Part shown: positions 24,596 to 25,500 of the stretch, in pieces
How the letters are laid out: the number at the start of each line of letters is the position of its first letter
How positions within the stretch are numbered: position 1 is the first letter of the stretch
Assembly: GCA_050013255.1 (NCBI GenBank)
Contig: JBEKFP010000002.1
Location: 608,001-672,000, forward strand
Length of the DNA stretch: 64,000 nucleotides
DNA from: Candidatus Bathyarchaeia archaeon
Lineage (GTDB): Archaea; Thermoproteota; Bathyarchaeia; 40CM-2-53-6
Direction: 5' to 3'
Notes under the pieces: generated by a model
Databases searched by the model: none
The model's input: the letters and a program-made list of their open reading frames with translations, nothing else
Told to the model about the DNA's origin: nothing
Position numbers and translations under genes: made by a program

Positions 24596-24655
24596 AATCC
24601 ATATAGCAACTGGCTATGCGTGACTGGGATGGGGCCGCCTTGTCGGTTCCGATGT

Positions 24656-24884
24656 GGGGCCGTAGACACAGTGACCATTCGGGAGTGACGGGCTCTAGCC
24701 AGGGATGACGACAGGGACACGTTCCCGCCAAGGGCTCCAGAAGACCAAACCTTAACGGGTTTGCGGACCTGAACGGAATGACGAACTTCAGGAGCGAAGA
24801 AACCCGTAGACATGACGGCATGGCGGAAGTCGAGGGTTCAAAATGGTTCACCCCAGAACCATGAGAATCCCTTCGGCCCCACCA
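24656..24884 (+). tRNA. tRNA-Trp(CCA) with five introns: 24666-24693 (10/11), 24713-24731 (28/29), 24741-24801 (37/38), 24810-24828 (45/46), 24842-24866 (58/59)
   Basis: Exons join to 77 nt: GGGGCCG TA GTCT AGCCAGGGA TGAC G ACGGG CTCCAGA CCCGT AGGTC GAGGG TTCAAAT CCCTT CGGCCCC A CCA; each intron is bounded by a strict or relaxed BHB. Confidence 0.88.
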
Positions 24885-24978: not shown

Positions 24979-25500
24979 TTGCCAAACCAGCCTTCGAACA
25001 GTTCCCAGCGCAGATTCAGTAGGCGAAACCTCCTGAAGGGGGCAGTCCTATTCGGGGCAGCGGCGCTACTACTCCCGCTGGAGAGACTTGGGCAGTTTCT
25101 ATTCGTTCCGCAAGAGACAGGGCCCCTAACCTACCCTAGGCTGCGAATAGCCAACACGAACGACGTTCCCACCAATGGAAGCCTACTCTTTGAATACCCT
25201 CACAAAGACCGACCGGCCGTCCTCATTCACTTGTCCGACGGTTTCGTGGCATTTGATTCAATTTGCACGCACCTCGGATGCCAAGTACACTACGACAAAA
25301 CGGTTGTAGCAGGATGGGAGAGCAAACCAAACCAGAACTTCTGTTCATGCCATGGCGGTGTCTTCGACCCTAAGACGGGAGAGGTGTTGGGCGGCCCGCC
25401 GCCGCGGTCTTTACCAAAGATCAAGCTCGAAATCGACAATCAAGGAGACATTTACGCGGACGGTTACGAAAGTGGCCTTCCCCTCTATGGTGAGGCTTGA
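24979..25500 (+). CDS. Rieske [2Fe-2S] protein with Tat signal
   Basis: SRRNLLK, CTHLGC, CSCHGG, GPPPRSL. Confidence 0.95.
   Translation: MPNQPSNSSQRRFSRRNLLKGAVLFGAAALLLPLERLGQFLFVPQETGPLTYPRLRIANTNDVPTNGSLLFEYPHKDRPAVLIHLSDGFVAFDSICTHLGCQVHYDKTVVAGWESKPNQNFCSCHGGVFDPKTGEVLGGPPPRSLPKIKLEIDNQGDIYADGYESGLPLYGEA

Follow-up and report, generated by a model that had tools for sequence, protein, structure and literature searches.

Is the 229-nt interval at positions 24656-24884 (+ strand) of the stretch analysed here a working tRNA-Trp gene, and if so, by how many introns is it interrupted? The interval lies in a 64,000-nt stretch (the window) of a Candidatus Bathyarchaeia genome, positions 608,001 to 672,000 of contig JBEKFP010000002.1 in assembly GCA_050013255.1. 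An earlier note, made from the sequence alone, had read it as six exons separated by five introns with bulge-helix-bulge (BHB) motifs, the substrate of the archaeal splicing endonuclease EndA. Comparison with 48 orthologous loci, with alleles in which introns are naturally absent, and with contigs from RNA bears out both the exon-intron structure and this mechanism. We conclude that the interval is a functional tRNA-Trp(CCA) gene with five archaeal protein-spliced introns (28, 19, 61, 19 and 25 nt), the third of them guide-like, and we place the probability of this reading at about 0.92.

Joining the six exons (24656-65, 24694-712, 24732-40, 24802-09, 24829-41 and 24867-84, all +) gives a 77-nt product which ARAGORN calls as tRNA-Trp(cca) over positions 1-77. 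The clean cloverleaf with anticodon CCA, as had been predicted, has a T arm, an acceptor stem of 7 perfect base pairs and an anticodon stem of 5 bp, and it ends in A73 and an encoded CCA. The discriminator A73 and the G1-C72 pair are identity elements of archaeal and eukaryal TrpRS; here both were read from the sequence, and they are kept in 48 of 48 loci. A cloverleaf built by choosing five deletions is evidence of little weight by itself, as free intron choice at another multi-intron locus of this genome made ARAGORN call Pro, Phe, Gln or Trp. The case for the gene hence rests on comparative and RNA data. For the comparison, the 77-mer was mapped on the 48 orthologous loci, 36 of them order-level, using a spliced aligner without any BHB rule. 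The parts of the gene are given below with intron 5 at its better placement; a hyphen within a bulge marks the cut.

24656-24665, + strand: exon 1, tRNA positions 1-10 (acceptor 5′ strand, U8, A9, G10); identical in 36/36 order-level loci.
24666-24693, + strand: intron 1, 28 nt, at 10/11; helix CCGT/ACGG, bulges AG-A and GC-T, covarying hairpin; CCGT/[AG]CGG in 24/24 loci with the intron.
24694-24712, + strand: exon 2, D arm, G26, A27 and C28; variation in D-loop bases only.
24713-24731, + strand: intron 2, 19 nt, at 28/29; helix GACG/CGCC (one A x C mismatch), bulges AC-A and AA-G; GACG/CG[TC]N in 33/33 loci.
24732-24740, + strand: exon 3, G29-G37, with the anticodon CCA at 24736-24738; invariant in all loci.
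24741-24801, + strand: intron 3, 61 nt, at the canonical 37/38; relaxed BHB CTCC/GAAG, bulges AG-A and AA-A.
24802-24809, + strand: exon 4, A38-G45, anticodon stem 3′ strand; invariant.
24810-24828, + strand: intron 4, 19 nt, at 45/46; helix CCGT/GCGG, bulges AG-A and AA-G, hairpin CATG/CATG; CCGT/GCGG in 36/36 order-level loci.
24829-24842, + strand: exon 5, G46-A59 by the 59/60 placement (end at 24841 by the 58/59 placement).
24843-24867, + strand: intron 5, 25 nt, best at 59/60; strict hBHBh′ motif, helix TTCA/TGAG, bulges AA-A and AA-T; TTCA/TGAG or similar in 31/31 loci.
24868-24884, + strand: exon 6, U60-A73, then the encoded CCA at 24882-24884.

Of 22 genomes from the same genus, 20 contain the locus, as do most families of the order, and its central part extends to eight more families of the class. 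The five interruptions are shared by all 15 loci of the genus that are complete. Five introns occur in 30 of the 48 loci, 15 from the genus and 15 from five further families (six families in all), and the count per locus ranges from 3 to 5 across the class. One further locus (L091) possibly has five, its D-loop reading being uncertain, and no six-intron allele was found among the 48. Aligning orthologous loci, the check that the earlier note had proposed, showed spliced products that are nearly invariant and introns that vary and covary. Where the T stem does change, the change is compensated across intron 5, in exons 5 and 6, with GAGGG/CCCTT becoming GGGGG/CCCCT, GTGGG/CCCAC or AAGGG/CCCTT.

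Natural intron-less alleles exist for four of the five insertions. Intron 1 is absent in 12 of the 36 order-level loci, with exact intron-less alleles in which exon 1 is contiguous with exon 2 (L021, L027, L032, L035 and L036). Precise absences were also observed for intron 2 (L038, L095 and L096), intron 4 (L090 and L094, where exons 4 and 5 are contiguous) and intron 5 (L037-L040, L088 and L091-L097). Intron 3 is the sole universal intron (48/48 loci), and no allele is free of all introns. Some families have a D-loop intron at 17/18, or an intron at 26/27, instead.

Introns 1, 2, 4 and 5 follow a common rule, where four exon bases shortly before the 5′ cut form a helix with the intron’s four bases that precede its last two, both 3-nt bulges are cut after the second base, and a freely varying hairpin lies between the half-sites. 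The closing stems of these hairpins average 2.5-5.0 bp, against ~0.5 in shuffles, and are built from many different stem sequences. The means are 3.6 bp for intron 1 (0.6 in shuffles; 13 different stem strands) and 5.0 bp for intron 5 (0.6 in shuffles). The full motif with a 4-bp helix is present in introns 1, 4 and 5, while introns 2 and 3 each have one helix mismatch. In intron 2 this is the A x C of CGCC in this genus, whereas other families are mismatch-free (CGTC, or CGTT with one G-U), and in intron 3 it is a constant C34 x A in CTCC/GAAG. Introns 1, 2 and 4 have an intron-side hairpin and no evident exon-side outer helix, intron 3 shows the opposite (the anticodon stem only), and intron 5 has outer helices on both sides, the T stem on the exon side and a 6-bp hairpin.

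The motifs named beforehand for introns 1 and 4 are present as described, and the positions 10/11, 28/29, 37/38 and 45/46 stand. The fifth, given as 58/59, is better placed at 59/60, where the motif is strict. A run of A leaves the placement uncertain by one base, and the product is unchanged either way. Accordingly, the label “relaxed” fits introns 2 and 3 and is dropped for intron 5. A trans-intron BHB formed by CCGCC of intron 2 with GGCGG of intron 4 was considered and rejected, as its cut geometry would join the wrong ends; the minimum free energy (MFE) fold does form this helix.

Transcription was assessed using public sequencing runs. At least half of the locus’s sampled words occur in 14 peat/wetland DNA runs, and part of them in six metatranscriptome runs; the RNA evidence consists of assembled contigs from four metatranscriptome runs belonging to four studies. 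Three of these contigs are unspliced precursor: X15 covers 24642-24804 at 100% identity, X19 covers 24654-24818 at a depth of 563, and X16 spans the whole gene (24652-24884) before diverging into the flank of a relative. The fourth, from X17 (90 nt), reads 24774-24801 and then directly 24741-24802, hence its junction (24801 to 24741) is permuted, as a circular intron 3 would give. This contig, whose length fits a 60-nt circle plus 30 nt at k = 31, supports excision of intron 3 as a circle with the predicted ends. It differs from the window by three substitutions and one deletion, which fall in a variable kink-turn (K-turn) loop. Of the two RNA signatures that the earlier note had suggested looking for, a circular intron is therefore supported (intron 3, by the one X17 contig), and exon junctions were not seen. 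Exon-exon junctions and mature tRNA were seen in none of the contigs of the four RNA runs, and contigs cannot show short or rare forms; circles of the four short introns were likewise not seen in the contigs, which cannot show them.

The suspicion that standard tRNA finders would miss the gene proved right for ARAGORN and Rfam. ARAGORN, with or without its intron option, gave no tRNA call for the genomic form, Rfam gave no match on the region at E up to 10, and the genomic form received no score from RF00005 across the whole genome. The genome (2.46 Mb in 3 contigs, completeness given as 100%) was also checked for a conventional tRNA-Trp elsewhere. Neither ARAGORN nor Rfam detected a second tRNA-Trp, nor did a spliced scan of the genome, which scored 113.6 at this locus and at most 75 elsewhere; 24656-24884 is apparently the only tRNA-Trp gene of the genome. 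More widely, ARAGORN with the intron option made ~30 calls genome-wide, many of them dubious and several with implausible kilobase-sized introns, and RF00005 yielded 18 above the cut-off. Most tRNA genes in this genome appear to be multiply interrupted.

One candidate for a second tRNA-Trp, at C3:122293-122472, shares its acceptor stem with the present gene and gave a forced CCA alignment, but was rejected when comparative alignment identified it as tRNA-Pro(GGG). This gene (L043:94-273) is 180 nt long with about four introns and has the anticodon arm CCAGC/CTGGGGC/GCTGG; its first intron is absent in other-genus relatives (L062 and L063). Separately, many 26-40-nt copies of a tRNA T-arm/acceptor 3′ end are scattered in this genome (14 matches) and in its relatives, for example at C3:131150, C3:134098, C3:137326, C1:124705 and C2:295574. 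Possibly these are 3′ ends belonging to other tRNAs, or what integrated elements have left of their att sites.

How would such a transcript be processed? The genome encodes two EndA paralogues (190 and 187 aa), each with PF01974 and PF02778; a local alignment of 78 residues gives 33% identity between the two. For the first, the best matches are chains 3p1z_B, 2cv8_A, 3ajv_B and 2zyz_B (E 1e-38 to 1e-28), which we take to be the crenarchaeal endonucleases of Aeropyrum, Sulfolobus and Pyrobaculum; the second is a more remote EndA-fold protein. This two-paralogue gene set resembles that of Crenarchaeota, whose heteromeric enzyme is of the broad-specificity type, and two such divergent sequences are consistent with a heteromeric broad-specificity enzyme. 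According to PMC5829648, an enzyme of this kind is required for non-canonical introns. An RtcB ligase is also encoded. As a side observation, its matches (C1:110968-113778, minus strand) fall in two parts ~1.4 kb apart within one 1039-aa open frame, and the gene looks as if it contains an intein.

The gene yields a precursor of ~230 nt with all five introns, and from these parts we infer a probable order of events. The endonuclease encoded by the two EndA paralogues would cleave the precursor, and RtcB would ligate the exons and circularise the introns. The BHBs of introns 1, 2, 4 and 5 are local and mutually compatible, hence these introns could be removed in any order. Their motifs take four exon bases each: from the acceptor stem plus U8 in intron 1, from the D stem plus G26 in intron 2, from the anticodon stem in intron 4 and from the T loop in intron 5. 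The earlier note had stated that the BHBs of introns 1 and 4 take stem bases, which is correct, and introns 2 and 5 likewise use cloverleaf bases; the ordered splicing through alternative folds that it had derived from this stays hypothetical. Because these four motifs tie up its bases, the cloverleaf would fold only after intron removal. Intron 3 would be cut after intron 4, as the BHB of intron 4 holds the 3′ strand of the anticodon stem, and probably last of all, since the 5′ strand of that stem is also split by intron 2.

The guide-like character of intron 3, on which the earlier note was silent, rests on the following elements, which lie within a sequence conserved across the class.

24755-24763, + strand: antisense element 1, ACGGGTTTG; pairs with AA-ACCCGT across the 3′ cut, the fifth base upstream of the D′-like box facing C39.
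24764-24784, + strand: K-turn, with D′-like CGGA (24764-67), C-stem hairpin (24768-76), bulge AAT (24777-79) and C′-like GACGA (24780-84).
24785-24796, + strand: antisense element 2, 12 nt, ACTTCAGGAGCG; pairs at 9 of 10 positions with G31-G37 and the first three intron bases.

The K-turn pattern, CNGA followed by a hairpin, a 3-nt RAU bulge and GANGA, was found in 36 of 36 order-level loci. Within it, D′ position 2 and C′ position 5 are paired as GC (n = 8), CG (n = 5), AU (n = 3) and UA (n = 3) among 30 distinct sequences, and the C-stem covaries in length and sequence. The helix of antisense element 1 is 94.6% paired, and a double change at the last intron base converts U-A to A-U in L038 and L039. 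In antisense element 2, C34 lies opposite the fifth base ahead of the next NNGA, with a 12-nt spacer. The outer pair of this element changes from GC to AU (n = 3) or UA (n = 3), double changes of AAG/CTT to AAA/TTT and AAT/ATT occur, and in other orders the element is a perfect CTGGAGC. Across the intron 3 alignment 89.4% of cells are paired, compared with 25-50% when the partners are slid; the covariation score was matched by 0 of 500 shuffles, and six pairs change on both sides. As the D-type box behind the spacer, relatives have CTGA, CGGA, CAGA or GTGA and this genus has AAGA, following a 3-4 nt deletion, and a C box (RUGAUGA) was found in intron 3 of none of the 48 loci. With the C box missing and the D box degenerate, we do not file intron 3 as a canonical box C/D small RNA (sRNA).

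Two other box assignments were rejected. The CTGA at 24769-72, tried as a D′ box, falls in the variable loop of the K-turn hairpin and is not conserved, and the intron tail GARGA, tried as a C box, is explained by the BHB half-site, its R pairing with U33 as A-U or G-U. As an observation in its own right, exon 2 (24694-24712) contains a C-box-like AUGACGA, the same 7-mer as the C′-type box at 24778-24784 and with the same preceding RAU; conceivably the D arm of the precursor stands in for the missing C box.

By the fifth-base rule, intron 3 would guide 2′-O-methylation of C39 and probably of C34. This has a close precedent, as the box C/D intron of Haloferax pre-tRNA-Trp guides methylation of positions 34 and 39 (PMC4090602, PMC11408192). 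Guide introns of tRNA-Trp are described for Haloferax volcanii and, as sR50, for Pyrococcus (Clouet d’Orval 2001 and Singh 2004, as presented in PMC4090602, PMC11408192 and PMC7994747). The Bathyarchaeia intron shares with these the same tRNA, the canonical position, a similar length (61 nt here, median 65 nt there), the aim at 34 and 39 by the fifth-base rule and a C′/D′-type K-turn. It differs in that it has no C box, a degenerate D box (NNGA) and C rather than U at position 39, and in that methylation here is a prediction. The homologous Sulfolobus intron (65 nt) forms a very stable circle and has both complementarities and no consensus boxes (PMC3326292); ours likewise keeps two complementarities without the boxes. 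A stable excised circle is known in both Haloferax and Sulfolobus, and is represented here by one contig. Once released, the circle could bind an L7Ae-type protein at its K-turn and, like the Haloferax intron, serve in trans as a guide for further copies of tRNA-Trp.

The alternative that survives best, though we consider it rather unlikely, is that intron 3 is structural or splicing-regulatory only, its helices masking splice sites or aiding folding without any methylation being guided. The missing C box and the degenerate AAGA fit this, as does the lack of consensus boxes in the Sulfolobus intron, and the Haloferax intron is dispensable (PMC11408192). An intron-internal hairpin, CTTC/GAAG, is moreover 95.8% paired and is a compatible rival. 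This hairpin varies by wobble only, however, whereas the outer pairs of the antisense duplexes show double compensatory changes and the K-turn covaries in all four Watson-Crick types. In the two antisense elements, furthermore, the fifth base counted from a D-type box falls precisely on C39 and on C34, both positions proven in Haloferax, and the circle was stable enough to be assembled.

A second feature of the locus lies outside the gene.

24631-24637, + strand: GGGGCCG, a copy of the acceptor 5′ strand, 25 nt upstream of the gene.

This copy accompanies intron 1: it was found in every one of the 24 loci carrying the 10/11 intron, against 2 of the 12 lacking it (background 4.4%), a contrast that is repeated within three families. 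It sits 11-26 nt upstream across the 24 loci, and in two families it comes close to being a tandem duplication of exon 1. In the MFE fold it pairs with the 3′ acceptor strand. Its transcription was not seen, the RNA contigs beginning at 24642 or later; candidate explanations are a promoter-proximal element, a leader with a short lifetime and the relic of a duplication. The gene is flanked by a YchF/Obg-type GTPase gene (minus strand) and by a Rieske gene, after which comes cytochrome b. A weak Rfam match to the C/D sRNA sR24 within the Rieske open reading frame (25368-25391; 15 bits, E 3.1) is probably due to chance.

It is conceivable that all these features form a compound RNA-processing unit. 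Here four introns would borrow stem bases, the intron 3 circle would be a trans guide with a single K-turn and no C box, and the upstream GGGGCCG would either aid processing or record the origin of intron 1. We regard this larger construction as improbable.

Several points count against a five-intron gene with a guide-like intron 3. Exon-exon junctions and mature tRNA sequence are missing among the assembled RNA contigs, and RNA libraries may contain DNA. The circle is one contig from a relative, where a tandem duplication is possible. The 4-bp helix is mismatched at one pair in introns 2 and 3, an exon-side outer helix is missing in introns 1, 2 and 4, and intron 3 has no C box and a D box reduced to AAGA in this genus. 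The second EndA paralogue has no sequence match to known structural subunits, and the subunit roles are putative. Lastly, the call of the spliced product is that of a single program, ARAGORN.

Two further alternatives draw on these points and are both very improbable. The first is that there are fewer true introns, one or more inserts being kept as expansions, or that the RNA is processed otherwise, for instance by trans-splicing of separate pieces. The contigs do show unspliced RNA only, and the helix mismatches of introns 2 and 3 and the missing exon-side outer helices of introns 1, 2 and 4 agree with it. Against this stand the exact intron-less alleles of introns 1, 2, 4 and 5, with unchanged flanking exon sequence, and the excised circle of intron 3 with its predicted ends. 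If kept, the inserts would break up the D, anticodon and T arms, and the X16 contig, which spans the whole gene, argues for one transcript. The second, a decayed pseudogene with insertions, its working counterpart lying in an unassembled part of the genome, could appeal to the silence of standard finders at 24656-24884, the lack of spliced RNA in the contigs and an assembly that is not closed, as it consists of 3 contigs, but it is contradicted by exons that stay invariant while introns vary in 48 loci of many families, by the compensated T-stem changes, by BHBs with covarying hairpins in each insertion, by transcription in three studies and an existing intron circle, and by a completeness given as 100% with no other Trp candidate genome-wide.

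The functional five-intron gene can be compared with other fragmented tRNA genes. A review gives three introns per tRNA gene for Crenarchaea (PMC4090602), and multi-intron genes of Thermoproteales are described for Pyrobaculum, Thermofilum and Caldivirga (Sugahara et al. 2008, as presented in PMC4090602 and PMC11291895). These genes resemble ours in having BHB introns at non-canonical sites (D, anticodon, variable and T regions), with which standard finders struggle. They differ in having three introns per gene rather than five, and in belonging to hyperthermophiles rather than to Bathyarchaeia of cold peat and soil. In Asgard archaea, up to four introns were reported in 2024, including a 231-nt tRNA-Trp with four introns in Atabeyarchaeia-2 (PMC11291895, Supplementary Data 4), and a 2026 preprint reports “up to five in a single gene” (bioRxiv 10.64898/2026.10.13.758758). 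There too interruption affects the majority of tRNA genes, tRNAscan-SE overlooks many of the introns, and the tRNA-Trp is of similar length (231 nt and 229 nt), albeit in another phylum than Bathyarchaeia. The earlier expectation that five introns would be at or beyond the known extreme thus holds against the three of the review and not against the preprint, and the present gene ties, rather than breaks, the highest reported count. In the published literature searched, we found no report of such tRNA genes for Bathyarchaeia.

For Bathyarchaeia, these results mean that introns can make up two-thirds of an essential, single-copy tRNA gene and that such a gene can go unseen by standard annotation. 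Because such genes escape annotation, inferences on the completeness of metagenome-assembled genomes of this class, or on its codon usage, go wrong when they are drawn from tRNA counts. Extreme tRNA fragmentation, published so far for Thermoproteales and Asgard archaea, now reaches a third lineage, which is abundant and mesophilic. The allele series of one gene with three to five introns is a natural data set for intron gain and loss, and the conservation across the class of a guide-like tRNA-Trp intron supports an ancient origin of this intron in Archaea.

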